DNA from: Eledone cirrhosa
Taxonomy: Eukaryota
DNA: 64,000 bases
Assembly: GCA_964016885.1 (NCBI GenBank)
Contig: OZ024744.1
Span: forward strand, 34,844,001 to 34,908,000
Reading direction: 5' to 3'
Part shown: positions 24,639 through 49,148 of the stretch, piece by piece
Numbering within the stretch: the first letter of the stretch is position 1
Layout of the letters: each line of letters opens with the position of its first letter
The notes under the pieces: generated by a model
The model's input: the letters and a program-made list of their open reading frames with translations, nothing else
Database searches by the model: none
Told to the model about the DNA's origin: nothing
Position numbers and translations under genes: made by a program

Positions 24639-24671
<33 letters not shown>

Positions 24672-25230: not shown

Positions 25231-25277
<47 letters not shown>

Positions 25278-25404
25278 TATATATATATATATGCATATAT
25301 ATATATACGTATATATATATATATATATATATATATGCATATATATATATATTCATATATATATATACGTATATATATATATATTATATATATATATATA
25401 TATT

Positions 25405-25600: not shown

Positions 25601-25717
25601 TTTAGTCTTCAAATTTATTATTATTACTATATATATATATATATAAATATATATGTAAATATATATATATGTAAATATATATGTACATATATATATATGT
25701 ATATATATATATATATG

Positions 25718-25797
<80 letters not shown>

Positions 25798-25859
25798 ATA
25801 GCGGCGATGAATTAGTTTAGCGAGGTTTTTTATATGAAATCGTGTGTCGAAACAGATAT

Positions 25860-27409
25860 TGTTATACTTGGGGAGGGTCATATTTGCGTAATATTGCCAG
25901 AATTAATAACAGAACACACTCACTGTTTGGTTGGTTTTCGCTTCTCGCTGTCTTTTATATCTGCGATCTAACTTACTCGGTCCTCAATGTTGCCATTGAC
26001 TGACCGACGGTCAAAAATAATACAGATACAATATAGACACAAACACATATATATAGTTTACATAATTTACATAAATCTTTCGTTGCACATCTGCAACATC
26101 GTCAGTGGTGTTATATTCTTTGTTCCTCCTGTTGTGTTGTATGTCTACGCCATTTTTTTATTCAGTCTGTCTATATATTTATTTATTTGCTTGTTTGTTT
26201 ATCTTATTTTATTTAGTCTTCTTTGTGCATGCGTTTGCGTGTGTGTATAGTGTTATGTGTGCTGTGTGACTAGTGTGTATAGTGTTGTGTCTGCTGGGTG
26301 ACTAGTGTGTGTTTATGTGCTTGTTGTTATTGTGCTTGTGTATGTATTTATTTCTCTTATTTTATTTTATTTTATTTTATTTACTTATTTATACTTCTCT
26401 TAGGTCAGTGTTGTTTGTTTGGGTGTTGTTGTTGTTCCACTCATTCATTCTGTTTAGCTTTGGTCTTCTAATTTCAATTTCACTGGCCTCTCTGATTTGC
26501 CTATCTGCTGGGTCATTCCTATGTTTAGATATTATTCTAATTTCTATGTTGTCTATGTTACCGTCATGTTGTTGTCTAGCATGTTCGTATAGTACTGACC
26601 CGTTTTTTCGTCCTTTTAGTTCCCCCCAGTGTTGGTCTATCCTTTCACCTATGCTACGAGCTGTCTCGCCTATGTATGTTGTTGTCATGTTTATGCAAGT
26701 ACCCTCTGTACATCTTATGCTATAGACTACGTTTCTAGTTTTACAGTTTATCCGGGGGTTCACCTTACATATGATACATTTCCTATTGGTACAGTGGGTT
26801 TTCTTAAAAGGGTAGGTTTTGCTGATCAGGGATTTTATGGTGGTTCCTGGCTTTTCTACCACCTTTATTTTTAAGTGGGTCTTTCTCAGGGCCTTTCTAC
26901 ACTGGTTAGCTAATTTCCCTCCAGGGGTGGCGTCCACAAACATGACACTCTGATATCTCTGATATGGTTGTCGTACCATGATGTGGCCTTCCCTATCTTA
27001 TATCTAGCCCTATCTAAGCTATTCCATGATTTGCTCCTGTATAGTGGGCAAATTCCTTTCATGTCCAGTTCTATGAGGGTCTTATACTTTTCCATGGCTC
27101 CTTCGTATAATCTGACTCTGTCTCTTTGGTTGTACAACACAACAGGAGGAACAAAGAATATAACACCACTAACGATGTTACAGATGTGCAACGAAAGATT
27201 TATGTAAATTATGTAAACTATATATATGTGTTTGTGTCTATATTGTATCTGTATTATTTTTGACCGTCGGTCAGTCAATGGCAACGTTGAGGACCGAGTA
27301 AGTTAGATCGCAGATATAAAAGACAGCGAGAAGCGAAAACCAACCAAACGGTGAGTGTGTTCTGTTATTAATTCTGGCAATATTACGCAAATATGACCCT
27401 CCCCAAGTA

Positions 27410-27412
<3 letters not shown>
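25860..27412 (-). mobile_element. Penelope-like element, 5'-truncated, GIY-YIG region with inverted pseudo-LTR
   Basis: ORF 26389-26979 has C..C..C..CKTRNVVYSIRC..C..YIGETARSIGERIDQH..RQIREA..LN. The segment 25860-26142 is inverted at 27133-27412; (TA)n flanks. Confidence 0.9.
26078..26105 (-). ncRNA. hammerhead-like core in the Penelope pseudo-LTR
   Basis: CTGACGA-t-gttgca gatg tgcaac-GAAA on the minus strand; stems I and III not clearly resolved. Confidence 0.5.
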
Positions 27413-27490
<78 letters not shown>

Positions 27491-27514
27491 AGAATATATA
27501 TATATATATATACG

Positions 27515-27623
<109 letters not shown>

Positions 27624-27632
27624 GTATATTTA

Positions 27633-27695
<63 letters not shown>

Positions 27696-27708
27696 GTATA
27701 TTTATATA

Positions 27709-27780
<72 letters not shown>

Positions 27781-27787
<7 letters not shown>

Positions 27788-30700: not shown

Positions 30701-31701
30701 AGCGATTAGGTCTTCAAAATGTTTATTATAAACATACAGAATATCTTCGAATATTCTATGTCTATATTCACATATATATCGCTATTTCAGAGCATTTATT
30801 CCAATTTCTAATTTCTGCCGGACCGGCAACCGCTCTTTCAAACCAGTTCCTGTACACAGCTAAGTATTCTATAAGTCTCTAGCTGTGTCATTCTCGATAA
30901 AAGCACTGGATATGTAGTCCTGACGATTTCTAATAAGAATGAAACGCGTAGATTTACTTCCCTTGCTTTTATCGAGAATCTAATTGTAATACGTGACGTA
31001 TTCTATTCTATAGCGATTAGGTCTTCAAAATGTTTATTATAAACATACAGAATATCTTCGAATATTCTATGTCTATATTCACATATATATCGCTATTTCA
31101 GAGCATTTATTCCAATTTCTAATTTCTGCCGGACCGGCAACCGCTCTTTCAAACCAGTTCCTGTACACAGCTAAGTATTCTATAAGTCTCTAGCTGTGTC
31201 ATTCTCGATAAAAGCACTGGATATGTAGTCCTGACGATTTCTAATAAGAATGAAACGCGTAGATTTACTTCCCTTGCTTTTATCGAGAATCTAATTGTAA
31301 TACGTGACGTATTCTATTCTATAGCGATTAGGTCTTCAAAATGTTTATTATAAACATACAGAATATCTTCGAATATTCTATGTCTATATTCACATATATA
31401 TCGCTATTTCAGAGCATTTATTCCAATTTCTAATTTCTGCCGGACCGGCAACCGCTCTTTCAAACCAGTTCCTGTACACAGCTAAGTATTCTATAAGTCT
31501 CTAGCTGTGTCATTCTCGATAAAAGCACTGGATATGTAGTCCTGACGATTTCTAATAAGAATGAAACGCGTAGATTTACTTCCCTTGCTTTTATCGAGAA
31601 TCTAATTGTAATACGTGACGTATTCTATTCTATAGCGATTAGGTCTTCAAAATGTTTATTATAAACATACAGAATATCTTCGAATATTCTATGTCTATAT
31701 T

Positions 31702-31705
<4 letters not shown>
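27781..31705. repeat. palindromic tandem array of 311-bp hammerhead-containing units (retrozyme-like)
   Basis: About 5.8 units in one orientation (27781-29596) and about 6.8 inverted (29597-31705); units look identical; (TA)n flanks; 13 hammerhead motifs. Confidence 0.95.
29646..29735 (+). ncRNA. type I hammerhead ribozyme, representative of array 1 (repeats every 311 bp)
   Basis: attctcgataaaagca..gtagtc-CTGACGA-tttct aata agaat-GAAA-cgc-GTA-gatttac..tgcttttatcgagaat; ACGCGT palindrome in stem III and a 16-bp distal stem I. Confidence 0.88.
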
Positions 31706-31775
<70 letters not shown>

Positions 31776-31789
31776 AATATATATAAATA

Positions 31790-31823
<34 letters not shown>

Positions 31824-31871
31824 CGTATATATATATATGTGTACATATACATACATAGAGGTATATATATA

Positions 31872-32210
31872 TGGAGGCACATGGCTTAGTGGTTAGAGCA
31901 TTGGCCTTGCAATCGAAAGGTTGTGAGTTCAATTCTCAGACCGGGTGATGTGTTGTTTCCTTTAGCAAGACACTTTATTTCACATTGCTCCAGTTTACTC
32001 AGCTGTAGAAATGAGATGATAGGGACTGGGGACCCTATCATTCCACTGCAAAGTGGTCGTGTAGGCACCATGGAAAAAAAAGCACCCAGCACTCACTGTA
32101 AATGAGGTTGGTGTTAGGAAGAGCATCCAGCTGTAGAAATCAAGCCAGAATCAGTTCCCGTCCCACCCTTGCAAGCAGGGAAAAGCGGACGTAAAAGGAA
32201 ATGATGATGA
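31872..32210 (+). mobile_element. full-length SINE family B
   Basis: tRNA head, CORE-like segment, gttaggaagagcatccagctgtagaaa, tail ending gacgtaaaa(tga)n. Confidence 0.88.
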
Positions 32211-32273
32211 TTATATATATATATAATGTTCATATATATACGTATATATATATATACGTATATATATATATAC

Positions 32274-32304
<31 letters not shown>

Positions 32305-32307
32305 CAC

Positions 32308-32398
<91 letters not shown>

Positions 32399-32404
32399 TA
32401 TATA

Positions 32405-32784
<380 letters not shown>

Positions 32785-32790
32785 TGTTTA

Positions 32791-32833
<43 letters not shown>

Positions 32834-32838
<5 letters not shown>

Positions 32839-33563
32839 TAAAGTTAGTGCTTCATCAGTGATCTTCCAACCATCATTTGTATTTCATCGCTTTAAAGACC
32901 ATATACCTCTGGTTGGTGCGAGCAACGGCTCAAAAAAAGTCCTTGGGACACGTAAATAAAGGGGACACGAGTGTAAACAAACAAAGATGGTGAAGCAACG
33001 AAAAGTGAGGAAGAAGAAGTCAAGTCCCAAATTTCTATGAATATAAATTCGGTGAAATCGTGAACGAGAGAGAATAAAGACCATCAAACCTGGTTGGAAT
33101 GTGAGCAAGGAAGGAATTCCGTACAGGTCTAACGGGAGGAAGAAGGGATCTAGTCTGTGAATTCGGTGAACGTAAGTTCTGTGAAATCGTAGACGAGAGG
33201 GAGAAAAAAAGCGACCTGCCTGACCAAGGGTGCGAAAGAAAAGAATTACGCACAGGTCAAACGGGAAGAAGGAGGAGGAGAGGTAGTAGCAGAGAGTGAG
33301 TCAGTGAAGGGTGAGGAAGAGGCTAACAGAGAGAGTGACTGTTAGAGACGGTAAAGATACAGAGAAAGAGGAAGCAGTAAGAACGAAATAGACGGGTCAC
33401 AGCGGGGGAAAAAATATGTGTAAATATGAGAATAAACGTGCTGCGTGGTTGCTAATGGGTTACATATGAATAAAGTTAGTCCTTCATCAGTGATCTTCCA
33501 ACCATCATTGGTATTTCATCGCTTTAAAGACCATATACCTCCGGTTGGTGCGAGCAACGGCTA
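32834..33563. repeat. insert in (TA)n with about 97-bp direct terminal redundancy (period about 632 bp)
   Basis: atgaataaagttagt..gcgagcaacggct at 32834 and 33466. Confidence 0.8.
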
Positions 33564-33587
33564 AAATATATATATATATATACACAC

Positions 33588-33772
<185 letters not shown>

Positions 33773-33875
33773 CATATATATATATACATATATATATATA
33801 TACATATATATATACACATATATATATACATATATATATATATACACATATATATATATACACATATATATATAT

Positions 33876-33922
<47 letters not shown>

Positions 33923-33933
33923 TATGTATACAC

Positions 33934-33978
<45 letters not shown>

Positions 33979-33989
33979 TATGTATACAC

Positions 33990-34042
<53 letters not shown>

Positions 34043-34161
34043 TATATATACACATATATATGTATACACATATATACATATATATATACACACATATATA
34101 TATATATATATACACACATATATATATACACATATATATATATATACACATATATATATAT

Positions 34162-34232
<71 letters not shown>

Positions 34233-34365
34233 GATAAATCTACCAAGAGTTTACGGTAGTGTCCAATCCGTATGAAGAACTCAATGTAATCCGGATATCA
34301 TGGAAAGAAGAGATGCAATGAAAAATCACTTTCGGTGAAAGATAAACGGAATACAGAGTCAAGAT

Positions 34366-34773
34366 AAAATATTAAAAAAATAATGAATAAAACAATGAAA
34401 CAGTTCCTTATATTAAACAAAAAAAGTTCATTATTTAACGATCGTTTCTGGGATATATATGTGTTAGAATTGGCATGTATATTTAACAGATCTATGTACA
34501 AAATTATACAAAATTATACAAACTATCAAAATTAAATATACATACCAACTCATATATATGCCGTCTTCAGAAATAATGAAGACGGCATATATATGAGTTG
34601 GTATGTATATTTAATTATGATAGTTTGTATAATTTTGTATAATTTTGTACATAGATCTGTTAAATATACATGCCAATTCTAACACATATATATCCCAGAA
34701 ACGATCGTTAAATAATGAACTTTTTTTGTTTAATATAAGGAACTGTTTCATTGTTTTATTCATTAATTTTTTA

Positions 34774-34781
<8 letters not shown>
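34366..34781. repeat. near-perfect palindrome with about 200-bp arms
   Basis: Centre gccgtcttca gaaataa tgaagacggc at 34560-34586. Confidence 0.9.
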
Positions 34782-34823
<42 letters not shown>

Positions 34824-35111
34824 TACATATATATATACACATATATATTAAAGTGTAAACACAGATCGCTGGACTTCTTCCTTGTTGAAAATCCAAGTAT
34901 CGGCCTTCGTGGTTTACCATTCGATTAATTGGTGAAATATATTTCTTTAATGGAATATATACAGGGAAGATTAATCATATTATAAGGTATCTATTTTTGA
35001 AGTTCTATTTAACTTTATTTAGTTACCTACCTAGCTATGTGTGCTTGCACACTTGTAAAGATTATCCCCTGTGATTATTCATGTTTATATATATGTTAAT
35101 CAATTTCTAGT

Positions 35112-35153
<42 letters not shown>

Positions 35154-35159
<6 letters not shown>

Positions 35160-36038
35160 TATGAAGAGAGAAGAAACATTTAGATATAATTAGTAATAAA
35201 ATGTATCATACCTAAACTGCTCCTAGGTTCCTCGACTACGTAGTTTCGTGGCATAAACAAAAACAATACATCATAAAGATATAGAGTCCTTGCGAGGTCT
35301 GCCGACTTATCAAGAGGATACCTCATTTTACTAGCCTCAAGAACGCGTCTACACGACGTGAGAAAGAATCCCAAAAGGCGGAGGGGGAGATAGTCACGCG
35401 ATATAACGGTCGAGAAACAGAGCTAAGCCTCTTATAACCCCGAAGAAAATACCACGGAGGCGGAGGGGGTATTTATATCGAAGCCGTAGAAGAGGTGGTG
35501 AAGGAGGCGAGAAGTATGAGTAATGGCAGCTTTCCAGCAGTCACCACACTTCAAAGATTACTCAACCAGAGGGAGTTATTAACAATATATTTAGAAACAC
35601 ACAGATACATGCGGGGACACACATATACATGAATGCATCCACACCCAACCGTGAGTTAAGGGTGCCAACCTCACCGATGTTGCTCAATGAATGACTGGGA
35701 CAGACCAATCCGGTTGAACCAGACTGAACCAGTATCAGAGTTAAAAATACATTATGAAGAGAGAAGAAACATTTAGATATAATTAGTAATAAAATGTATC
35801 ATACCTAAACTGCTCCTAGATTCCTCGACTACGTAGTTTCGTGGCATAAACAAAAACAATACATCATAAAGATATAGAGTCCTTGCGAGGTCTGCCGACT
35901 TATCAAGAGGATACCTCATTTTACTAGCCTCAAGAACGCGTCTACACGACGTGAGAAAGAATCCCAAAAGGCGGAGGGGGAGATAGTCACGCGATATAAC
36001 GGTCGAGAAACAGAGCTAAGCCTCTTATAACCCCGAAG
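35154..36038. repeat. partial tandem insert in (TA)n, 1.5 units of 593 bp
   Basis: 35154-35445 is repeated at 35747-36038, giving the duplicate 64-aa ORFs. Confidence 0.85.
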
Positions 36039-36073
36039 ATATATATATATATATATATACACATATATATATC

Positions 36074-37650
36074 GTTATACTTGGGGAGGGTCATATTTGT
36101 GTAATAATATTGCCAGAATTAATAACAGAACACACTAACTGTTTGGTTAGTTTTCGCTTCTGTATCTTTTATTCTGTTAATTTAATTTATTCGGTCCTCG
36201 ATGTTGCCATTGACTGACCAACGGTCAAAAATACAGATACAATATAGACACAAACACATATATATAGTCTAACAAAGTTCTTTTGTTGCGCATCTGCAAC
36301 ATCGTCAGTGTTGCTATTATGTTTCCTCCCGTTGCATTGTATGCTTACGCCATCTTTATTTAGTCTGTTTATTTATTTATTTATTTGTTTATTTTTGTTT
36401 GTCTTCTCTGCGCATGCGGTTGCGTATAGTGTTTTGTTTGATGTGCGTTCGTGTTTGGGTGACTCTGTATTGGTTAATGTATTCTATCTTAGTTTACTAG
36501 TTTGTGTTTATATGTGTTTGTTGTTATTGTGCTTGTGTATGTATTTATTTATTTATTTATATTTCTCTTAGGTCAGTGTTGTTTGTTTGGGTGTTGTTAT
36601 TCCATTCCTTTTTACTGTTTAGCCTTGGCCTTCTAAGTTCTATTTCGCTGGCCTCTCTGATTTGACTACCGGCTGGGTCATTTCTATGTTTAGATATTAT
36701 TCTAACTTCTATGTTGTCTATGTTACCGTTGTGTTGTTGTCTGGCATGTTCGTATAGTACTGAACCGTTTTTTTCGTCCTTTTAGTCCTTTTAGTTCCCC
36801 CCCCCCCCCCCCAGTGTTGGTCTATCCTTTCACCTATGCTACGAGCTGTCTCGCCTATGTATGTTGTTGTCATGTTTATGCAATTACCCTCTGTACATCT
36901 TATGCTATAGACTACGTTTACAGTTTATCCGGGGGTTTACTCTACATATGATACATTTCCTATTAGTACAGTGGGTTTTCTTAAAAGGGTAGGTTTTGCT
37001 GATCAGGGATTTTATTGTGGTTCCTGGCTTTTCTACCACCTAAATCTTTAAGTGGGTCTTTCTCAGGGCCTTTCTACACTGGTTAGCTAATTTCCCTCCA
37101 GGGGTGGCGTCCACAAACATGACACTCTGGTATCTCTGGTTGTCGTACCATGAGGTGGCTTTCCCTATCTTATGTCTAGTCCTATCTAAGCTATTCCATG
37201 ATTTGCTCCTGTATAATGGGCAAATTCCTTTCATGTCCAGTTCTATGAGGGTCTTATACTTCTCCGTGGCTCCTTCGTATACTCTGACTCTGTCTCTTTG
37301 GTTGTAGCCAGAGAACTGCATGCGGTTGATGAAGTGTTGGATGTATCTTTCCATTTCTGTTGGGTCGCACATGTGGGACACGTTCTTCATCACAAGTACC
37401 AAGTCTGCGATCAGAATATTAAACTTAGCACTACTGGACATTGCTGAGTTTTTGAGTATCAGGTATTTGGAGGCCATGGGTTTAGCATAGTGTGAGTGGA
37501 GAATTTTGGTTCTCTCGTCTATAGTGTTAATCCAGAGTTCCGTGTCTAATACAGGTAGTTTATTGTTAGGGTGTTTGGAAGGGTAGTCGATAGTTACAGT
37601 TATACTCTGGTGTATGGAATTAGCTATCTGCTGGATGCTTTCCATTGTGC
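36074..37650 (-). mobile_element. Penelope-like element, second copy of the 25860 family (RT C-terminus to GIY-YIG, pseudo-LTR)
   Basis: LPVLDTELW..HYAKPMAS..MQFSGY..CPLYRSKSW..MFVDATPGGKLA, then a frameshifted GIY-YIG region; same pseudo-LTR gttatacttggggagggtcatatttg. Confidence 0.9.
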
Positions 37651-39700
37651 TACATTCGGACTGGATGTTGTGGTACCAACATAACTTTACATCGAAAGGG
37701 GTGGTGTGGATGGGTGGGGGTGTTAGGACGGGGGTGTATTTTTGTTAGAGGTGCCTACTGACTGTAGGTCTCGCTTTGTACATAGGCAAGGCGGATCTTC
37801 TGTATTACTGCGTAGCTCCAAAGATCTCGATCCAGTGACATTGTCTTGGAGAGGTGTAAGTGTGTGAGGTCAGAATTTATCAAGTCGTCCCAGGTTTTTC
37901 TGGGTCTGCCTACTCCGTGGCTAACGTCTATTTTTATCGCCCTGCACTTTTTTATACAGCTGTCGCCTTTCATGAGCATCACGTGACCATACCAACGTAG
38001 TCTTCTCTCGAGTAAAAAACATCTGATTCCTCTTATTCCTAATGTCTCCCTTAGTTCATTTATGCTTTGCCGTTCACATATATTACTATTACACATCCAA
38101 CGGAGCATGAAAGCTTCGTTCCTCTCCAGTCTGCGTATATCCTCTGCACACAATGCCCGAGTCTCACTGCCATGTAACATTGCTGTTCGTATGCAGGCAT
38201 CATACAGCCTGCCTTTCATTTTTAGAGAGAAAACTTTAGCGGCCAATAGTGGTGTAAGCTCTCTGAACTTTTTCCATCCCGTTCTGACTCTAGCTACTGT
38301 ATTTTCAGAGCACCCTCCACCACTGCTGATTTTGTCACCCAGATAACGGAAGGTGTCCACTATTTCTATAGAACCATCTGTGCAATGGAATGAGCTAGTC
38401 TTCTGTGGGCACTTGCTGCTACTTATTGCACCTGAGCACCGGCCACATATAAAATCTATATTCTTAGTTAGCTTACCTGTGATCCCACTACATCTTTTAT
38501 GCACCTATACTTTGCATTTGGGACATAAAATGGAGTTTGTGCCTATTCCTTTCCTACACACTGAGCATGGCCATTTCCCAGATGAGACCAGTGCCCTATT
38601 TTCCTTCCTACAAACTAGATCTTTAGTCTTAGACAGGTTAACTTTAAGGCCTTTTGATTCTAGGCCATGCTTCCATGTTTAGAATTTCTTCTCTAGTTCA
38701 GCCATTGATTCAGCTATGAGCGTTAGATCATCTGCATATAGGAGTTCCCATGGGCAGCCGGTCTTCAACTCCTCTGTTATAGCCTGAAGGGCAATAATAA
38801 ACAGTAGGGGGCCAAGGACGGAGCCCTGATGAACACCAACTTTTACTCTAAACTCTTCACCATATTCGTTGTTAATTCTAACCTTGCTGACTGTTTCTTT
38901 ATACATGGCTTGTATAGCTCTCACAAGCCATTCATCAACACCTAGTTTTCTAAGAGCCCGCCAGATAATCGAGCAGGGTGCTCTGTCAAAGGCTTTCTCC
39001 AAGTCAACAAAAGCTAAGTATAGGGGTTTACTTTTAGCTAGGTACTTCTCCTGTAGTTGTCGTACAGTGAAAAGAGCATCTGTTGTACTTTTACCTGACA
39101 CAAACCCGAACTGCATTTCATCTAGATCAATTCGCTCTCTGATTAGTTGCGCTATTACTTTTTCTGTGACCTTCATGACCTGGTCAATTAATTTAATGCC
39201 TCTATAGTTACCCCTATCTAGGGCATCTCTTTTACCCTTGTAACAGTTAATGATGATGCTGCTACGCCAGTCCTTCGGAACGGCCCCATTCTGTATGACT
39301 TGGTTTACTATCCGGGTGACCATGGTGGGTCCCACCGTTCCAGATGCTTTCAGCATTTCAGCAACTATTTCCGAAGGCCCAGCCACCTTACCCGTTTTCA
39401 TATATTTGATTGCCTTACTTATTATACTACCTTCAACTTACACTGCTGGTCCCTCTATTGGATGGATGTGGGGGAGACTGTCTTTCTCCCATTTATTCTC
39501 CTCATTTAGTAGCCTTTCGTAGTGACACTTCCAAGTTACTTTCTTACCAGCGTCAGTGATGGCAAGTACACCATCATCATTAAGGACACACTTCTCCCCC
39601 GACAATATCACGGTTTTCCTTGACACATTGCCTAACAATCTCGAACACCTCACGTTTTTGGTCCTCGCGTTGTAGAACATGCTTGAACTATATATATAGG
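37650..39700 (-). mobile_element. RTE-clade LINE relic (RT plus Cys/His-rich insertion and C-terminus)
   Basis: YKGKRDALDRGNYRGIKL, QFGFVSGKSTTDA, FVDLEKAFD, GVHQGSVL, LYADD, FRYLGD, RRLRWYGHV, GRPRKTW. Confidence 0.92.
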
Positions 39701-39748
39701 TATGATACATTTTATTACTAATTATATCTAAATGTTCCTTCTCTCTTC

Positions 39749-39834
<86 letters not shown>

Positions 39835-39944
39835 ATGCTTGAGCTATATATATACACACATATATATATACACATATATATATATAGAATATGCTTGAGC
39901 TATATATATACACACATATATATATATATATATTCATATATATG

Positions 39945-40322
39945 TCATCATCATTTTACGTCCGCTTTTCCCTGCTTGCAAGGGTGAGACGGGAACTGAC
40001 TCAGGCTTGATTTCTTCAGCTGGATGCCCTTCCTAACACCAACCTCATTTACAGTGAGTGCTGGGTGCTTTTTTTCCATATCACCTACGCGTCCAATTTA
40101 CAGTGTGGGCTGGGTACTTTTTTGCCGTGGTACCTCCACAATCACTTTGCAGTGGAATGATAGGGACCCCAGTCCTATCATCTCATTTCTACAGCTGAGT
40201 AAACTGGAAAAAGTTGAAATAAAGTGTCTTGCTCAAGGAAACAACACATCACCCGGTCTGAGAATTGAACTCACAACCTTTTGATTGCAAGGCCAATGCT
40301 GTAACCACTAAGCCATGTGTCT

Positions 40323-40325
<3 letters not shown>
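39945..40325 (-). mobile_element. full-length SINE family B with two internal 48-bp units
   Basis: Reverse match to family B with the acagtg..ctgggt..tttttt unit duplicated. Confidence 0.85.
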
Positions 40326-40391
<66 letters not shown>

Positions 40392-40401
40392 TATACATCT
40401 A

Positions 40402-40437
40402 CTTTTGAAAAGCACTAGAACTGCGAAACCGGTAAAA
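40402..40437 (+). ncRNA. minimal hammerhead-like motif with U3-A8 core
   Basis: tt-TTGAAAA-gca ctagaac tgc-GAAA-ccg-GTA-aa. Confidence 0.55.
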
Positions 40438-40769
40438 AAACAAATAAATATATTTTTCAAAAAAAATGCAACTCCAGTTGCATTTTCGATTTCATCTTTT
40501 TTCCTTATATATATATATATATATCATCATCATCATCATCATTTAATCTGTAAAAGCGTGTAAGCACGCACAGCTATGTGTGTAACTAATTAAAGTTTAA
40601 CTAGAACTTCAAAAATAGATACCTTCAATGTCTAGTTGATATGTATATAGTAATAATTTTTAATAAATATATATGTGTATATATATATATGTATATATAT
40701 ACACATATATATATATATGTGTATATATATATATGTATATATATATACGTATATATATAGAGAGTCAGT

Positions 40770-41165
40770 AGGTACGTACCTCTTAACCATATATACACCC
40801 CAATCCACTACCCCTACCCTATCCTCCCACTCCCACCAACACCACCCTCTCTCTGTAAAGTTGGTACCACAACATCCAGTCCAAATAAATGAGTTAATGA
40901 GATCGAGATCGAGAACAAAAAACAAAAAAAAAACATATAGTCCACGCTGTAATGTGGCCGTGTAGGTAACACAGTAAAAAGTTCCCAGTTCCCCGCTGTA
41001 AATGTGGTTGGTGTTATGAAGGACATCCAGCCGTAGAAAACCTGCCATATAGTCCTATATGAGCGAGACATGGTCACCTGACCTACCTTGCCTCTAGTGG
41101 GACAACTCCCGTCTAACCCATGCTTGCGTGGAAGATGGACGTTAAATGAAGATGATGATGATGAT
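40770..41165 (+). mobile_element. RTE-related 3' UTR and tail fragment
   Basis: gttggtaccacaacatccagtcc is shared with about 37655-37680; ends ggacgttaaa(tga)n. Confidence 0.6.
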
Positions 41166-41228
41166 GATATATATATATATGTATATATATAAGGTATATG
41201 TATATATATATGTATATATATGTATATA

Positions 41229-41270
<42 letters not shown>

Positions 41271-41274
<4 letters not shown>

Positions 41275-44254
41275 TATAGACATAGAATATTCGAAAATAT
41301 TCTGTATGTTTATAATAAACATTTTGAAGACCTAATCGCTATAGAATAGAATACGTCACGCATTACAATTAGATTCTCGATAAAAGCAAGGGAAGCAATC
41401 TACGCGTTTCATTCTTGTTAGAATTCATCAGGACTACATATCCAGTGCTTTTATCGAGAATGACACAGCTAGAGACTTATAGAATACTTAGCTGTGTACT
41501 GGAACTGGTTTGAAAGAGCGGCCGCCGGTCCGGCAGAAATTAGAAATTGGAAAAATGCTCTGAAATAGCGATATATATGTGAGTATAGACATAGAATATT
41601 CGAAAATATTCTGTATGTTTATAATAAACATTTTGAAGACCTAATCGCTATAGAATAGAATACGTCACGCATTACAATTAGATTCTCGATAAAAGCAAGG
41701 GAAGCAATCTACGCGTTTCATTCTTGTTAGAATTCATCAGGACTACATATCCAGTGCTTTTATCGAGAATGACACAGCTAGAGACTTATAGAATACTTAG
41801 CTGTGTACTGGAACTGGTTTGAAAGAGCGGCCGCCGGTCCGGCAGAAATTAGAAATTGGAAAAATGCTCTGAAATAGCGATATATATGTGAGTATAGACA
41901 TAGAATATTCGAAAATATTCTGTATGTTTATAATAAACATTTTGAAGACCTAATCGCTATAGAATAGAATACGTCACGCATTACAATTAGATTCTCGATA
42001 AAAGCAAGGGAAGCAATCTACGCGTTTCATTCTTGTTAGAATTCATCAGGACTACATATCCAGTGCTTTTATCGAGAATGACACAGCTAGAGACTTATAG
42101 AATACTTAGCTGTGTACTGGAACTGGTTTGAAAGAGCGGCCGCCGGTCCGGCAGAAATTAGAAATTGGAAAAATGCTCTGAAATAGCGATATATATGTGA
42201 GTATAGACATAGAATATTCGAAAATATTCTGTATGTTTATAATAAACATTTTGAAGACCTAATCGCTATAGAATAGAATACGTCACGCATTACAATTAGA
42301 TTCTCGATAAAAGCAAGGGAAGCAATCTACGCGTTTCATTCTTGTTAGAATTCATCAGGACTACATATCCAGTGCTTTTATCGAGAATGACACAGCTAGA
42401 GACTTATAGAATACTTAGCTGTGTACTGGAACTGGTTTGAAAGAGCGGCCGCCGGTCCGGCAGAAATTAGAAATTGGAAAAATGCTCTGAAATAGCGATA
42501 TATATGTGAGTATAGACATAGAATATTCGAAAATATTCTGTATGTTTATAATAAACATTTTGAAGACCTAATCGCTATAGAATAGAATACGTCACGCATT
42601 ACAATTAGATTCTCGATAAAAGCAAGGGAAGCAATCTACGCGTTTCATTCTTGTTAGAATTCATCAGGACTACATATCCAGTGCTTTTATCGAGAATGAC
42701 ACAGCTAGAGACTTATAGAATACTTAGCTGTGTACTGGAACTGGTTTGAAAGAGCGGCTGCCGAGCTAAGTATTCTATAAGTCTCTAGCTGTGTCATTCT
42801 CGATAAAAGCACTGGATATGTAGTCCTGATGAATTCTAACAAGAATGAAACGCGTAGATTGCTTCCCTTGCTTTTATCGAGAATCTAATTGTAATGCGTG
42901 ACGTATTCTATTCTATAGCGATTAGGTCTTCAAAATGTTTATTATAAACATACAGAATATTTTCGAATATTCTATGTCTATACTCACATATATATCGCTA
43001 TTTCAGAGCATTTTTCCAATTTCTAATTTCTGCCGGACCGGCGGCCGCTCTTTCAAACCAGTTCCAGTACACAGCTAAGTATTCTATAAGTCTCTAGCTG
43101 TGTCATTCTCGATAAAAGCACTGGATATGTAGTCCTGATGAATTCTAACAAGAATGAAACGCGTAGATTGCTTCCCTTGCTTTTATCGAGAATCTAATTG
43201 TAATGCGTGACGTATTCTATTCTATAGCGATTAGGTCTTCAAAATGTTTATTATAAACATACAGAATATTTTCGAATATTCTATGTCTATACTCACATAT
43301 ATATCGCTATTTCAGAGCATTTTTCCAATTTCTAATTTCTGCCGGACCGGCGGCCGCTCTTTCAAACCAGTTCCAGTACACAGCTAAGTATTCTATAAGT
43401 CTCTAGCTGTGTCATTCTCGATAAAAGCACTGGATATGTAGTCCTGATGAATTCTAACAAGAATGAAACGCGTAGATTGCTTCCCTTGCTTTTATCGAGA
43501 ATCTAATTGTAATGCGTGACGTATTCTATTCTATAGCGATTAGGTCTTCAAAATGTTTATTATAAACATACAGAATATTTTCGAATATTCTATGTCTATA
43601 CTCACATATATATCGCTATTTCAGAGCATTTTTCCAATTTCTAATTTCTGCCGGACCGGCGGCCGCTCTTTCAAACCAGTTCCAGTACACAGCTAAGTAT
43701 TCTATAAGTCTCTAGCTGTGTCATTCTCGATAAAAGCACTGGATATGTAGTCCTGATGAATTCTAACAAGAATGAAACGCGTAGATTGCTTCCCTTGCTT
43801 TTATCGAGAATCTAATTGTAATGCGTGACGTATTCTATTCTATAGCGATTAGGTCTTCAAAATGTTTATTATAAACATACAGAATATTTTCGAATATTCT
43901 ATGTCTATACTCACATATATATCGCTATTTCAGAGCATTTTTCCAATTTCTAATTTCTGCCGGACCGGCGGCCGCTCTTTCAAACCAGTTCCAGTACACA
44001 GCTAAGTATTCTATAAGTCTCTAGCTGTGTCATTCTCGATAAAAGCACTGGATATGTAGTCCTGATGAATTCTAACAAGAATGAAACGCGTAGATTGCTT
44101 CCCTTGCTTTTATCGAGAATCTAATTGTAATGCGTGACGTATTCTATTCTATAGCGATTAGGTCTTCAAAATGTTTATTATAAACATACAGAATATTTTC
44201 GAATATTCTATGTCTATACTCACATATATATCGCTATTTCAGAGCATTTTTCCA

Positions 44255-44256
<2 letters not shown>
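41271..44256. repeat. second palindromic tandem array, 309-bp hammerhead-containing units
   Basis: About 4.8 units forward (41271-42763) and about 4.8 inverted (42764-44256); diverged subfamily of array 1; 10 hammerhead motifs. Confidence 0.95.
42796..42884 (+). ncRNA. type I hammerhead ribozyme, representative of array 2 (repeats every 309 bp)
   Basis: gtagtc-CTGATGA-attct aaca agaat-GAAA-cgc-GTA-gattgc, closed by attctcgataaaagca/tgcttttatcgagaat. Confidence 0.9.
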
Positions 44257-44286
<30 letters not shown>

Positions 44287-44347
44287 GTATATATATATAT
44301 GCATATATATATATATAAGTATATAGATATATATATGTATATTTATA

Positions 44348-44504
<157 letters not shown>

Positions 44505-44662
44505 GAGGTAGAAATGAAATTTCATTGCATTCTTTTCCATTTATCGTTTCCGGTGCGCCCGGCCGACTAACTCACTAGATATGCAAATTAGGCTGCTCAG
44601 CAGTTAATATGCATAAGAAAAGTATATACTTTCAGACGTTCTACCATCTGACAGAAAGGTAT

Positions 44663-44705
44663 ACGATGCTGACGATAGCTAATAAGCTTGAAACTAGTAC
44701 ATCGT
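44663..44705 (+). ncRNA. minimal type I hammerhead ribozyme
   Basis: acgatg-CTGACGA-t agct aata agct t-GAAA-cta-GTA-catcgt; perfect 6-bp stem I and ACTAGT palindrome. Confidence 0.85.
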
Positions 44706-44988
44706 TCCTGTGTCAGTGTTGAACAAAAAGGTGACGTGGTTGCCTAAACACTGTCCGGCGTAATTCGGGCTGTTTGTTTGTTTACAAACAAACAAACCGG
44801 GCATTATAATAAATGTTCGGTAAACCGATACTTGCATATATATATATATATGTGTGTGCATGTATGTATATATATACATACTACTGTACGTCTGTATACA
44901 TATATGTATGTACGTGTACATACATACTTAAACTTAAGTATCAGCCGTACTAAGAGTGAGAAATGAAATTTCATTTCATTCTTTTCCA

Positions 44989-45026
<38 letters not shown>

Positions 45027-45060
45027 CTGGTATGTATATATATATATATATATATACTGG

Positions 45061-45132
<72 letters not shown>

Positions 45133-45159
45133 ATGTAAAAAAGTAACAGACGAGTTGAT

Positions 45160-45334
45160 ATATATAAAAACAAATACTAGAAAGAAAAAAGATTTTTCCA
45201 GTAGAAAATGTTGAAGAGATTCTTTCAGTGAAATATCAAAACATTAATTTATTTACAACCGGTTTCAGCATTAAATGTATTGTCAATTGTGGATATGCAG
45301 AATATTGTTAAGTTGCATATTTGTACAAATAGTG

Positions 45335-45371
<37 letters not shown>

Positions 45372-46021
45372 TAATAATAATGATAATAATAATAATGGAG
45401 GCACATGGCTTAGTGGTTAGAGCATTGGCCTTGCAATCGAAAGGTTGTGAGTTCAATTCTCAGACCGAGTGATGTGTTGTTTCCTTGAGCAAGACACTTT
45501 ATTTCACATTGCTCCAGTTTACTCAGCTGTAGAAATGAGATGATAGGGACTGGGTCCATATCATTCCACTGTAAAGTGGATGTGTAGGTGCCACGACAAA
45601 AAAGCACCCAGCACTCACTGTAAATGAGGTTGGTTTTAGGAAGGGCATCCAGCTGTAGAAATCAAGCCAGAATCAGTTCCCGTCCCACCCTTGCAAGCAG
45701 GGAAAAGCGGACGTAAAATGAAATGAATGAATGAATGAATGAATAAGGGGAGGCTATTAACAGAGAAGGATGGACAGAGAATTGAACTTTCTTCTCTGAA
45801 TGAACATGTATGTGAAGATTAATTTTTCTTCTCCTTTTTATTATTATTATCACTATTTGTACAAATATGCAACTTAACAATATTCTGCATATCCACAATT
45901 GACAATACATATAATGCTGAAACCGGTTGTAAATAAATTAATGTTTTGATATTTCACTGAAAGAATCTCTTCAACATTTTCTACTGGAAAAATCTTTTTC
46001 TTTCTACTATTTGTTTTTATG

Positions 46022-46025
<4 letters not shown>
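45160..46025. repeat. fold-back insert with about 180-bp arms enclosing a SINE B
   Basis: 45160-45340 is inverted at 45840-46025. Confidence 0.85.
45396..45722 (+). mobile_element. full-length SINE family B
   Basis: tRNA head through RTE-like tail. Confidence 0.88.
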
Positions 46026-46052
<27 letters not shown>

Positions 46053-46340
46053 CGAATTTCATACTATAAACCACAATTGAATATATATCTGACCAGGAAT
46101 GCTTTTTGTGAAAATCAGTCATATGAAACTATTGTCATCTTGCCTGATGGTTTGAACTTTACACACCACCTGCCTCTTTGAGGTCAAATACCAACCCTAC
46201 TAGCATCTACAAACTGACCAATGAGAATTAAGATTATTCCTGTTGACAACATTAAATTATTCCTAACAAGCTCATATGTCCCAAGACTCTGATACAATCA
46301 ACACTATAAACACAGAGCTGGCATATCTAAGAACTTACTA

Positions 46341-46396
46341 ACTACCTGATGAGGTCATAGCAACTCAATGGCTATCATCGAAATATATATAGCAGT
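46341..46396 (+). ncRNA. type I hammerhead motif
   Basis: actac-CTGATGA-ggtcatagc aactcaatg gctatcatc-GAAA-tatat-ATA-gcagt. Confidence 0.7.
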
Positions 46397-46437
46397 AAAT
46401 AAAGGATTATGAGTTCATGCAATTGACTTATGTTTCG

Positions 46438-46519
<82 letters not shown>

Positions 46520-46660
46520 TATATATATATAGCCAAAATCAGTTACCAGGTCACCCGACCTGGCACTGCCCACAACAGGACAACCCATCCAACCCATGGA
46601 AGAATGGACGTAAAATGGTGATGATGATGATGATGATGATATATATTTATATATATATAA

Positions 46661-46692
<32 letters not shown>

Positions 46693-46698
<6 letters not shown>

Positions 46699-47570
46699 AA
46701 AAGGAGATAAAATCGAAAATGCAACTGGAGTCTTATTTTTTTTTTTTTTTTTTTAAATATATATATTTATTTGGTTCCTTTACCGGTTTCGCAGTTCTTC
46801 TGCTTTTCAAAAGGTGAGTTGAGATGGAGGGTCTGTGGTTTTTGTCACATCTGGTTGGTCTCTGAATGTTACTTGTTTTATATGGAAAAAGTGGCTCGAA
46901 ATGCCAGGTTTTTCGAGAAGTAATTTGATTGGTTTGTCAATAATTATAATAAATTTACAATAGTTCTTCAAATAAGAGGGGGGGCTGTCACAGGTTGTTT
47001 TTTCATATATGAGTGTTTGAATTTCTTTTTACTTGAAACAACCCCCACACCCACAACTCCCTCCCCATTTCTACTAATAGAACCACTTTCCTACACACAT
47101 ATATATATACACACACACAAAATATATATTCTCTCCATCTTAACATACTCGCACACACACACATAACACCCATATACACAAACACACAACTCCCTCCCCC
47201 ATTTCTACTAATAGAATCATCTTCCAATACACACATACACACACACTCACACACACACATACACACACACACAAGCACACAAATAAACATACATATCTTC
47301 ACTTCAATAGAAAATCTGAACTCTGACACCCCAGCGAACTAACCATATTCACTGAACCAGAACAATTCTCCCAATCCCATTTCTCTTGACCACTATCTTT
47401 CCATTGTCATAACATTCGCTATAAAGACTACAGAATAGTTTTCCAAATAAGGGCGCAAAAATGTAATGAAAACTTGTTCACGTGACAGCCAAATTTCATT
47501 TATAACCAATCAAATCACGTTTATTAAAAAAAAGCCTTCGTGAGCCACCTTTTTTTAAAGTAAAGAAATT

Positions 47571-47629
<59 letters not shown>

Positions 47630-48303
47630 GCACACAGATAAACACACATATCTTTACTTTCTTTATTCAATAGAAAATCTGAATTCTGACACCCCAGCGA
47701 ACTAACCATATTCACTGAACCAGAACAATTCTCCCATCCCTTTCTCTTGACCATTATCTTTCCGAGGTTAACTTTGCCTTTCATCCCTACGGGGTCGATA
47801 AAATAAAGTACCAGTAATACACTGGGATAATTTCTGGCCTTGTGCCAAAAGTAGAAACAATTATCTTTTACTTATCAAAACATTCTCTAAAAAGGCTACA
47901 GAATGGATTTCCAAATAAGGGCACAAAAATTTAATGAAAATTTGTTCACGTGACAGCCATAATTTCATTTATCACCAACCCCAAAAAAGCCTTCGTGAGC
48001 CTCCTTTTTTCAAGTAAAAAGAAATTCAAACACTCATATATGAAAAAACAACCTGTGACAACCCCCCCCCCTCTTATTTGAAGAACTATTGTAACGCGAA
48101 CTGGCGCGAAATTTATTATAATTATTGACAAATCAATCAAATTACTTCTCGAAAAACCTGGCATTTCGAGCCACTTTTTCCATATAAAACAAGTAACATT
48201 CAGAGACCAACCAGATGTGACAAAAACCACAGACCCTCCATCACAACTCACCTTTTGAAAGCAGAAGAACTGCGAAACCGGTAAAGGAACCAAATAAATA
48301 TAT

Positions 48304-48334
<31 letters not shown>

Positions 48335-48373
48335 GACTCCAGTTGCATTTTCGATTTCATCTCTTTTTCTTTA
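46693..48373. repeat. fold-back insert with about 350-bp arms, each carrying a hammerhead-like motif, plus an internal direct duplication
   Basis: 46693-47037 is inverted at about 48010-48373; about 47300-47500 is duplicated at about 47660-47980 with a SINE A fragment inserted. Confidence 0.85.
46777..46814 (-). ncRNA. minimal hammerhead with U3-A8 core
   Basis: cctt-TTGAAAA-gcag aagaa ctgc-GAAA-ccg-GTA-aagg; the inverted copy at 48251-48287 lacks one A. Confidence 0.7.
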
Positions 48374-48449
48374 TACTTTCACTCGTGTAGGACACCTCGG
48401 TTATTTTTCATTTTGTAAAAAAAACCTCACTTTCTAATATATATATATA

Positions 48450-48770
48450 ACTTTGAAATGTTTCGGCCAGTATTGGCCCAGGCCATGTCTAACTTAATAG
48501 CACCACCTGGCGAAGTCTTTCAATTCAGGATTTGGGCACCATGGCCCATTCGAGAAGGGAATTACTGTTTGCGGAGACATATCCGGGTGTGGGTGGTTTG
48601 TCCGGGATTACTTGGAGGAATTTGTCCAAAGACTTCTTGAATTTTGTGTGGTCAGTTTCTGTTTTGACGTGTCCTGGTGTGATGTTGAAGAGAGCAGGGC
48701 CAATTGAGGTGAAATAATTGTGCCGTTATGAGTTGCAATTTAGATTTTTGTCATAGAGGGTATACAATCA
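48450..48770 (-). mobile_element. CR1/L2-group LINE 3' end fragment
   Basis: Minus translation IGPALFNITP..FKKSLDKFLQVIPDKPPTPGY..NSNSLLEW. Confidence 0.65.
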
Positions 48771-49148
48771 ATTATTAGTTAATTAATTATATAATTCAAT
48801 AATTAGAATCATCAGAATTTAAACACAAACAACATTATTACCTCACCAAATAGTTGTATTAAGGAATTCATACATTTAAATATTGTATGTAGCCTTCTGT
48901 ATAGTTTACTGTAATAAATCTCATATTTTGAGCTGTAAAAATTTCTTCACCTACCTTTATCTCTTTTCGTATTTGAAAAAGACTTATTATATATATATAT
49001 TTGTGGTTCCTATTTAAAATTCATCTTCATTCAAAAACAAATGTATTTTCAAAATATTTACCGTTTGAAATATTTGTATAAGTTTTAAATTATACAAATT
49101 TTTATTCTTTTTCTTTTACTTCTTTTTCTTTCTTAAAAAAAAAAAAAG

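Follow-up and report, generated by a model that had tools for sequence, protein, structure and literature searches.

Metazoan non-LTR retrozymes have been described as direct tandems of non-coding units of 150-450 bp, low in GC and bearing a type I hammerhead ribozyme, for which a circular RNA template and a Penelope-like element (PLE) partner are hypothesised (Cervera and de la Pena, 2020; PMC7229834). Li, Clavereau and Pollet (bioRxiv 10.64898/2026.07.22.740005) regard retrozymes as non-autonomous PLE derivatives on the basis of co-occurrence and pLTR homology, report multimers in introns and intergenic DNA, and attribute arrays to local amplification. The word 'inverted' does not occur in the main text of the former, nor 'head-to-head', 'tail' or 'orientation' in that of the latter. 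EN+ PLEs combine an inverted 5'-truncated copy, a one-sided tail of 30-40 bp and a preference for (TA)n with a hammerhead upstream of two internal reverse transcription start sites (PMC8557442, PMC3846280, PMC11167929). Both the entry of retrozymes into genomes and the origin of the inverted ends and one-sided tails of Penelope elements are stated as open in this literature. In L1 twin priming (Ostertag and Kazazian, 2001, as reviewed in PMC10760644), two target primings and a microhomology join invert the 5' part of the insert, and in hepatitis delta virus ADAR edits a circular ribozyme RNA at a UAG site (PMC11019741).

The window analysed here, a 64,000-nt stretch of Eledone cirrhosa contig OZ024744.1, contains two fold-back arrays of one repeat family (Table 1). 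This family resembles the metazoan retrozymes in its tandem non-coding units, type I hammerhead and GC content (36%); its one-pair stem III bears a palindromic tetraloop like that of axolotl HHR_Amex1, and its majority state shares with HHR_Amex2 a basal U.U mismatch in stem II (PMC7229834). Unlike them, its normal insertion is head-to-head, with two fixed ends and one haplotype in both arms. The link to PLEs and the occurrence of multimers in introns and intergenic DNA agree with Li et al., but our link comes from insertion anatomy, and no pLTR homology was found in the two autonomous PLE families compared. The features listed above for EN+ PLEs all recur here, yet there is no ORF and the arms consist of repeated 310-nt units; moreover, haplotype marks trace both arms to one template variant, an origin that is hard to read from PLE copies so nearly identical. 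Compared with L1, where twin priming is a minority outcome that uses the poly(A) tail and a chance internal site, the inverted form is here the rule, both start sites are fixed and internal, the template is putatively circular and the enzyme belongs to another class. As in hepatitis delta virus, the recurrent A>G changes fall at paired adenosines with a 5' U, one of these sites being UAG, whereas here the RNA is genome-encoded, the change lies in chromosomal DNA copies and editing is deduced from DNA only. We consider it probable that array 2 is a head-to-head insertion made by a Penelope-like reverse transcriptase/endonuclease, which primed at both (TA)n cut ends on one circular, likely ADAR-edited RNA.

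Table 1. Features of the window; positions are counted from its first nucleotide
Feature	Position	Strand	Basis
Array 1, of the same family but independently inserted, unit of 311 bp	27781..31712	.	
Array 2, single retrozyme insertion with two head-to-head arms, unit of 309 bp	41271..44256	.	sequence
Left arm of array 2 (4.8 units), ending outward at site A, unit position 130, with ...CTCA before (TA)n	41271..42763	-	
Right arm of array 2 (4.8 units), ending outward at site B, unit position 164, with ...CCAA before (TA)n	about 42764..44256	+	
Asymmetric centre of array 2, 34 nt on left arm only	42730..42763	.	
(TA)n target flank, left	41167..41270	.	
(TA)n target flank, right	44256..44503	.	
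Stretch between two matched TRPC channel gene exons, containing arrays 1 and 2	19147..49148	+	tblastn
Minimal type I hammerhead: stem I, CUGAUGA, stem II, GAAA, palindromic ACGCGU	42820..42862	+	
Plus-arm hammerhead, other copies	43129, 43438, 43747, 44056	+	
Left-arm hammerhead	41395..41437; other copies 41704, 42013, 42322, 42631	-	
16-bp distal helix closing the hammerhead	42796-42811 with 42869-42884	+	
Private A>G of array 2, first full plus unit	42861 (unit position 5, stem I), 42896 (unit position 40), 43043-43044 (unit positions 188-189)	+	
Private 1-nt deletion of array 2	unit position 158		

The hammerhead unit and the two arrays

Judged by its sequence features, the repeat family is a non-LTR retrozyme: tandem units of 309-311 bp, within the 150-450 bp range, carry one type I hammerhead per full unit, lack coding capacity (no reading frame of at least 110 aa within array 1 or array 2), show no LTR structure and stay below the 45-50% GC limit of the class. 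The hammerhead is of the minimal kind, with a CUGANGA and GAAA core, stems I and II, an NUH site and a short palindromic stem III, and the copy in the first plus-arm unit is predicted to cut after the GUA at 42856. Rfam gave no match to the unit at the gathering score; below it stands a weak match to the HH9 hammerhead (E=0.031, 19.4 bits against a cut-off of 52). A 34-nt hammerhead pattern matches the genome 11,458 times, against 0 for its reversed control, so that the family holds at least 11,458 hammerhead units. Folding predicts that the unit RNA forms a stable self-paired circle, both in the family of arrays 1 and 2 (family 1; circular minimum free energy z about -4.1 against block shuffles) and in an older, diverged family 2 (-6.4).

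The first-pass annotation had described array 2 as a fold-back of two arms with a period of 309, internally uniform like array 1, and its coordinates and anatomy stand. In array 1, a minus arm of 5.8 units ends at site B and a plus arm of 6.8 units at site A, and all 11 of its full units agree; array 2 has arms of equal length (1493 each), its site B end reaches 34 nt beyond its site A end (the 'tail'), and its centre joins two 5' breakpoints about 35 nt apart in the unit. All eight full copies in array 2 are identical, the one mismatch being in the central partial copy, where unit position 188 is A rather than G; an inosine read as A, or CpG decay, could account for this lone A. As far as tblastn shows, both arrays of this octopod lie in a TRPC intron.

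Between the arrays, the unit differs at 12 places (10 substitutions and two indels). Those that had been reported within the ribozyme are all present (N7 C/U, loop II AAUA/AACA, stem II base U/A, stem I GAUUUAC/GAUUGC), while CUGA-GA, GAAA, ACGCGU and the 16-bp distal helix are the same in both; a further seven differences, outside the ribozyme, are new here. The inference that two RNA variants inserted independently is borne out, but the assignment of array 2 to a sister subfamily gives way to that of one insertion with a haplotype unique genome-wide, as all eight genome matches to 188G/189G lie within array 2 itself. Array 2 carries five private changes on a backbone present in 10 of 112 end-sampled insertions, and 5G outside array 2 sits on different backbones. 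Nor is it clear that selection restored the pair at the base of stem II, where the U.U mismatch is the majority state and 287A occurs in 23/112, and the stem I change turns an A-U pair into G.U.

The conservation of the hammerhead fold itself is upheld, in family 1 by helix variants that mostly keep pairing and in family 2 by compensatory pairs. In family 1, pairing is kept by eight of nine insertion-wide variants and by 7/29 of those confined to single units (p=0.0009). However, six of the eight are A>G at A-U pairs, and as such a change keeps pairing whatever its cause, the fold would here be preserved automatically. Family 1 by itself is too young for covariation, with no two-sided change at one pair. 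That core positions mutate less than their flanks is only suggested in family 1, where 0/46 insertion-wide and 10/119 single-unit variants fall at 16 core positions (p=0.063). In family 2, whose hammerhead has UUGAUAA (U3-A8 replacing C3-G8) and a 12-nt palindrome, the fold is kept, with 97.9% of cells paired and two-sided changes at four pairs (1/500 shuffles, relatedness uncontrolled). Families 1 and 2 have the region at positions 59-209 in common. Selection on the RNA fold is well supported between families, and may act together with editing.

Insertion architecture and template across the genome

Well over a thousand head-to-head arrays of the family are estimated to exist in this genome. 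Insertions were sampled by an end motif adjoining (TA)n, almost wholly from two contigs (C1-C2), and the 16 loci picked by likeness, together with the two window arrays, were left out of the counts of 138 and 112. Among 138 insertions, 120 are head-to-head and none tail-to-tail; 115 of these 120 have an A end on one arm and a B end on the other, none has A/A or B/B, and the other five run off the stretch or end elsewhere. The commonest junctions (A130 and A164) lie 34 nt apart, and unselected ends are TA-rich (46/49 and 67/68), establishing a (TA)n target preference. Three hallmarks of PLE insertion are thereby found: an inverted 5'-truncated copy, a one-sided tail of 34 nt (within 30-40 bp) and a (TA)n or AT-rich target; any target-site duplication would be masked by the (TA)n. 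In family 2, pairing looks looser (16 A/B, three B/B and eight other among 27 two-armed insertions). Priming at site A by annealing to the unit-internal ATATATAT was considered and rejected; most unselected A ends skip the CA that precedes this tract, so that site A behaves as a fixed start. One locus (L001) that resembled array-ORF-array proved to be a local duplication of a single-arm insertion, and its second copy was left out.

Arm lengths differ freely. In 134 complete fold-backs, the A arm is longer in 55 and the B arm in 66, with 14 within 60 bp; the difference exceeds one unit in 97, and in 14 one arm is shorter than a unit while the other is more than a unit longer. The two lengths nevertheless show a weak correlation (rho 0.27, p=0.002). 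Breakpoints at the centre are uniform across the unit (p=0.12), and none of the 268 falls exactly at the cleavage site; an apparent pile-up there (13/268) was a BLAST edge artefact that base-by-base extension removed. The two arms overlap by 0-7 nt of microhomology, with overlaps of at least 2 nt in 66/134 against 24.6 expected. Nine centres lie within long self-complementary overlaps, and near-symmetric centres are not enriched (19 against 13.4 expected, p=0.11).

Both arms share their majority haplotype in 66 of 68 two-armed insertions, where chance would give 0.115, and private variants occur in both arms. Of 46 haplotypes, 34 were seen once and are fixed across their own units, in a sample of less than a tenth of the family. 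Among insertions with at least four units, only 57/110 are wholly uniform, which weighs against the mechanism proposed below, as does the fact that unit identity can hide later unequal exchange and assembly collapse. The two discordant insertions are L113 and L211; in the latter, both arms begin on one haplotype and the long arm later switches to another, its inner 13 units carrying a haplotype missing from the other arm. Repeated variant patterns within long arms (L020, L032, L084, L106 and L194) point to later local amplification.

Two young autonomous families in the genome share the (TA)n target, the head-to-head form and two fixed ends, with tails of 176 nt and 45-60 nt against 34 nt in the retrozyme. 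Their assignment to PLEs is putative, drawn from RT and GIY-YIG motifs recognised by eye, from architecture and, for the first family, also from PF26215-bearing homologues; Pfam gave no family for the ORF of either, and PDB none for the one ORF compared. The repeat has no sequence in common with these two families, local scores lying within those of shuffles; the pLTR comparison covered these two families, in a genome with tens of thousands of further PLE-like candidates. No partner sequence was found beside the nine single-arm insertions examined.

A>G changes and their likely origin

Changes that extend through a whole insertion were counted in 129 of 149 insertions, those with fewer than two full units being excluded, and seven loci picked for 5G were left out of the change spectrum. 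In the ribozyme sense, A>G outnumbers T>C among insertion-wide changes by 13 to 3 (p=0.0045; Fisher against single-unit changes, 0.0004) and C>T, which is equally pair-keeping, also by 13 to 3 (p=0.0006). Single-unit changes show the opposite: T>C 22 and C>T 20 against A>G 7, with both genomic strands alike (p=0.025). Insertion-wide A>G occurs in 23/129 insertions. The excess over T>C weakens to 9 to 3 (p=0.044) without array 2, and then to 7 to 3 (p=0.13) among insertions of at least four units. Certain sites recur on different backbones (276G on five, 259G on four, 20G on three and 5G, insertion-wide, on four), and sites 5, 20, 259 and 276 all belong to the 13 paired UA adenosines among 92, in a test devised after the data were seen; sites 20 and 259 lie in the 16-bp distal helix. 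Haplotype recombination, as seen in L211, could carry one A>G across backbones. ADARs favour a 5' U (PMC11019741); over all 14 A>G sites, U precedes 6, compared with 36 of all 92 adenosines, with no clear skew. Array 2 itself has A>G at four of its five private changes and no other substitution relative to its backbone, two of the four being unique in the genome. Judging from this pattern, these four are likely to be RNA edits written back into DNA. Deaminase-domain loci are present on four stretches of the host genome, and in the metazoan retrozyme study RNA editing is named only as one possible cause of clone heterogeneity (PMC7229834). Public contigs show no more than the known 295 A>G variant, in one run, and a lone circular contig of 310 nt in each of three further runs; any tandem repeat yields such circles, and these contigs are neutral on expression.

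Mechanism, alternatives and significance

By analogy with known retrozymes, multimeric transcripts would self-cleave at the hammerhead and then circularise, and a PLE protein, probably a dimer, would cut both (TA)n strands. Reverse transcription would begin at unit position 164 from one target end and at 130 from the other, on the same circle; it is the fixed complementary ends together with the shared haplotype that lead us to infer one molecule. Purified PLE protein, a predicted dimer, cleaves both strands of the target and extends them from a pair of internal RNA sites, which set the tail; against the A/B pairing here, the strands in that in vitro study were not seen to differ in start site (PMC11167929). 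Each cDNA would make as many turns of the circle as its own extension allowed, with occasional single-unit T>C errors, and the two ends would join through microhomology anywhere in the unit. Inosines in the circle, attributable to ADAR from the A>G bias and its recurrence, would be read as G, so that an edit shows in every unit of both arms. A wider proposal, to which we give somewhat less than an even chance, is that octopod ADAR edits on a self-cleaving RNA circle enter the germline through a PLE reverse transcriptase dimer priming 34 nt apart and become fixed as G in every unit; each array would then be a single-molecule record of editing and rolling-circle reverse transcription, and editing a main source of new ribozyme variants.

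Several other routes to such an array have been suggested or can be imagined. Head-to-head pLTRs of PLEs have been ascribed to self-priming (PMC3846280), in which a single cDNA, after folding back or jumping to itself or to an antisense template, is copied from its own sequence; this would account for the identical haplotypes of the two arms, and the equal arms of array 2, the weak correlation of arm lengths and the nine self-complementary centres are in its favour. A copy can, however, never be longer than its template, yet either arm may be the longer and most pairs differ by more than a unit. Near-symmetric centres are not enriched, the second arm ends at the other fixed site rather than where the first arm ends, and the inner 13 units of L211 have no counterpart in the opposite arm. 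Self-priming is largely refuted by the arm lengths, and we regard it as very unlikely. The circle could be dispensed with if both primings took place on a linear multimer, or on a pair of clonal RNAs from one donor array; PLE insertion in vitro does not need hammerhead cleavage (PMC11167929), a uniform donor would yield uniform copies, and a second template evidently can join in, as L113 and L211 demonstrate. We nonetheless think a linear template improbable, as the assembly holds no donor array for the haplotype found in all eight full units of array 2, and most haplotypes sampled are singletons fixed across their units. Moreover, no breakpoint coincides with the cleavage site, the expected end of a cut linear RNA, and an edit on a linear multimer would mark single units and not all.

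The first-pass annotation had instead explained the variants by selection on RNA structure, which, with recombination among a few old lineages, would need no editing. The pair-keeping of insertion-wide helix variants, their absence from the core, the true compensatory pairs of family 2 and the template switch in L211 are all compatible with this account. It does not, however, readily explain why C>T, the commoner input among single-unit changes and likewise pair-keeping, is rare among insertion-wide ones, nor why array 2 differs from its backbone by four A>G and no other substitution, two of them found nowhere else; an origin without editing therefore seems to us unlikely, if less so than the preceding alternatives. 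Amplification of a satellite in place by unequal crossing-over, followed by inversion, or a long-read fold-back artefact, can be refuted as the origin of the arrays. Local amplification is the model of Li et al. and is evident in some long arms, and the fact that no public contig spans the centre of array 2 is uninformative either way. Neither process gives fixed complementary ends, unique flanks, unequal arms, microhomology centres and strand-biased variants, and the same form recurs in family 2, which is older and diverged, as well as in the two PLE families with coding capacity.

With an estimated thousand or more young, haplotype-marked products in one genome, the family separates models of retrozyme entry: its products favour two primings from complementary fixed starts on one template variant over self-priming and local amplification, and the 310-nt unit is a named substrate for in vitro work. 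If the A>G excess does reflect ADAR editing, edits made in RNA would have a heritable path into DNA, and this among the animals best known for such editing. Any intron that receives an array would also gain a kilobase-long perfect hairpin and active ribozymes, as would that of the TRPC gene here.

Two arrays and the family they belong to

Array 2, the feature under study, and its companion array 1 both occupy the stretch separating two matched exons of a TRPC channel gene. One exon of this gene shares 99% identity with a protein cluster with named members from Octopus and Argonauta, which makes the host an octopod. Both are built from family 1, a ~310-bp hammerhead repeat, with ribozyme-sense 5' ends joined at the centre and 3' ends directed toward (TA)n. 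The first-pass annotation described each array as internally uniform, and its full units are indeed identical (8 of 8 in array 2; 11 of 11 in array 1); the units of the two arrays differ at 12 places, 5 in the ribozyme, where the changes that it reported are confirmed, and 7 outside. The ribozyme is a minimal type I hammerhead in which a palindromic ACGCGU replaces stem III, accompanied by a 16-bp distal helix, and its Rfam match is weak (HH9, E=0.031). Within a single intron, the TRPC pre-mRNA would thereby contain 12 hammerheads in sense orientation and two perfect hairpins, each a kilobase long.

Features of the window and loci of related families
Feature	Position	Remarks
TRPC channel exons	5271-54850	plus strand
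48-bp minisatellite	7909-12669	~99 copies, within TRPC gene
PLE family with 1211-aa ORF, very young	25730-27418	5'-truncated head-to-head copy; its end lies in the (TA)n tract of array 1
Array 1	27781-31712	minus arm then plus arm; period 311
PLE family with 1211-aa ORF	36039-37657	older copy
Array 2	41271-44256	minus arm then plus arm; period 309
Second young PLE family (794-aa ORF)	60608-61734	relic; other loci L177-L190
Family 2 loci	L117-L146, L013, L033, L052, L100, L173, L242	

The proposal that array 2 represents a sister subfamily does not survive comparison across the assembly. Array 2 combines a common backbone, found in 10 of 112 end-sampled insertions, with five private changes (A>G at unit positions 5, 40, 188 and 189, and one 1-nt deletion), while array 1 carries a different backbone and one private change. 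As all eight genome-wide matches to the 188G/189G motif fall inside array 2, this array is a single insertion of one RNA variant, without a donor array in the assembly.

A 34-nt hammerhead pattern matched the assembly 11,458 times (control, 0), which is a lower bound because the pattern excludes the 295G variant; the exact end motifs matched 494 and 897 times. With 1154 full units in 149 sampled insertions (~8 per insertion), we estimate that family 1 comprises well over a thousand insertions. Loci were sampled by likeness (16), by one end motif (80), by the other end motif where absent from the first list (53), or for one variant (7), and all end-sampled loci come from two contigs. Head-to-head fold-back is the rule, observed in 120 of 138 end-sampled insertions, with none tail-to-tail; 18 were scored as single-armed, but at least three of these entries belong to fold-backs that are very small or interrupted (L021, and both halves of L090). 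The outer ends are fixed: 115 of the 120 have one arm terminating at ~130 (site A) and its partner within 157-172, most often at 164 (site B), and none of the 120 pairs A with A or B with B. The end not used for selection also adjoins TA-rich DNA (46/49 and 67/68).

Origin of the two arms

A single cDNA folding back on itself is argued against by several features of the 134 complete fold-backs. Either arm may be the longer (A in 55, B in 66), lengths differ by more than one unit in 97 and fall within 60 bp of one another in 14, and the two are weakly correlated (rho 0.27). Central breakpoints are evenly spread along the unit (p=0.12), and none coincides with the cleavage site. Near-symmetric centres show no enrichment (19 observed, 13.4 expected), and overlaps of at least 2 nt at the centre are enriched (66 against 24.6). 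Together, arm lengths, centre positions and overlaps favour the joining of two separate cDNAs through microhomology, much as twin priming is modelled for L1 (PMC10760644).

The arms nevertheless appear to share a template. Among 68 insertions with two or more full units per arm, the majority haplotypes of the two arms agree in 66 (random pair, 0.115), or in 54 of 56 in the end-sampled set alone (random pair, 0.105), and private variants are present in both arms. The simplest reading of arms and haplotypes, well supported by inference, is two primings on one circular RNA: a molecule read many times would be a circle, with an occasional switch to a second molecule. At L211 the two arms start with a single haplotype, which the long arm further along exchanges for another; at L113 one A>G is present throughout the A arm but in the B arm is confined to the innermost unit. 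Such changes part-way along an arm may reflect a template switch or editing during reverse transcription. The picture is not perfectly clean: of 110 insertions with four or more units, no more than 57 are uniform throughout, and repeated variant patterns in some long arms point to later local amplification. Three sequencing runs labelled as different organisms (X1, X3, X6) each contain one exact circular contig of 310 nt with a common haplotype at depth 10-15, which could be host DNA traces and which any tandem repeat would yield.

Ribozyme fold and variant spectrum

The first-pass annotation ascribed the substitutions to selection on the fold, for which family 1 gives partial support. Helix variants keep pairing in 8 of 9 insertion-wide cases, against 7 of 29 in single units (p=0.0009), although six of those eight are A>G at A-U pairs; the core holds 0 of 46 insertion-wide and 10 of 119 single-unit variants, a difference in the predicted direction that falls short of significance (p=0.063). 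In stem II, where the annotation saw pairing restored in array 2, a U.U mismatch is the majority state of the family, and restoration under selection is therefore not clear. Family 2, an older relative (~319 bp) discovered adjoining family 1 loci, offers better evidence. It has shorter arms, the same two ends and ~75% likeness over positions 59-209, and its hammerhead is unlike that of family 1 in sequence, with a UUGAUAA core (U3-A8) and a longer stem III palindrome. In an alignment of 26 copies, pairing is kept in 97.9% of cells and four pairs show two-sided changes (statistics that ignore kinship), with compensatory variants in stems II and III. Head-to-head form recurs in 27 of 31 sampled insertions (16 A/B, 3 B/B, 8 with an odd end).

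Minority-unit changes in ribozyme sense are biased toward T>C (22, against 7 A>G; p=0.025), whichever genomic strand the arm lies on, a pattern more in keeping with errors of reverse transcriptase than with mutation of the DNA. Insertion-wide changes show the opposite bias, with 13 distinct A>G changes compared with three each of T>C and C>T (n=34, leaving out six backbone positions), and A>G is carried by 23 of 129 insertions. The same A>G recurs on distinct backbones (position 276 on five, 259 on four, 20 on three, and 5 on four, the last including loci picked for 5G), and of the four other insertions in which 5G is fixed, three have 276G or 20G as well. Haplotype switching could spread one variant across backbones in this way. 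Each of the four sites is a paired adenosine that follows a U and lies in stem I or the distal helix; by a test devised post hoc, 13 of the 92 adenosines are of this class; ADARs favour a 5' U and edit heavily in coleoids (PMC11019741), and deaminase-domain loci are found in the assembly. Over all A>G sites the 5' neighbour skew is slight, and the excess shrinks to 9 against 3 without array 2 (p=0.044) and to 7 against 3 in insertions with at least four units (p=0.13). On balance, we rate RNA editing as the source of the excess at somewhat better than even.

Relation to Penelope-like elements and retrozymes

By unit size, ribozyme type and absence of coding, family 1 belongs with the non-LTR retrozymes (PMC7229834), with cleavage and expression predicted. 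Its insertion anatomy, observed directly, matches that reported for Penelope-like elements (PLEs), in which an inverted 5'-truncated copy occurs together with a one-sided tail of 30-40 bp (PMC8557442, PMC3846280). A purified PLE cleaves the two strands of its target and extends each, starting at two internal RNA sites bounding the tail, and a dimeric form is predicted for it (PMC11167929); a 2026 preprint links retrozymes to PLEs from co-occurrence and pLTR homology, leaving the mechanism open (bioRxiv 10.64898/2026.07.22.740005). Two young coding PLE-like families with intact ORFs (794 and 1211 aa) share with family 1 the (TA)n target, head-to-head form and two fixed ends. The 1211-aa family has an Asn-rich insert in its ORF, a minimal hammerhead in its pLTR and ends 45-60 nt apart; the 794-aa family has a 176-nt tail and, read by eye, an atypical hammerhead-like motif with a CCGAAGA core and long stem II. 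Neither shares sequence with the family 1 repeat, and neither is therefore established as its partner.

Other short perfect fold-backs, bordered by (TA)n and unrelated to the retrozyme, occur at many loci (e.g., L100:800-1100, L126, L139), which suggests that the head-to-head form is widespread among non-autonomous repeats of this genome. At L120:480-570, beside (TA)n, lies yet another hammerhead-like motif, the third, whose core is TTGATAA and whose stems are unrelated.

In the literature, mainly open-access main texts, we found neither fold-back arrays of retrozymes with complementary ends nor the capture of edited RNA circles in DNA described. Family 1 of E. cirrhosa thus appears to present an undescribed form of retrozyme insertion and, given that capture of ADAR edits in DNA copies of its RNA is plausible, may also preserve edited circles as DNA.
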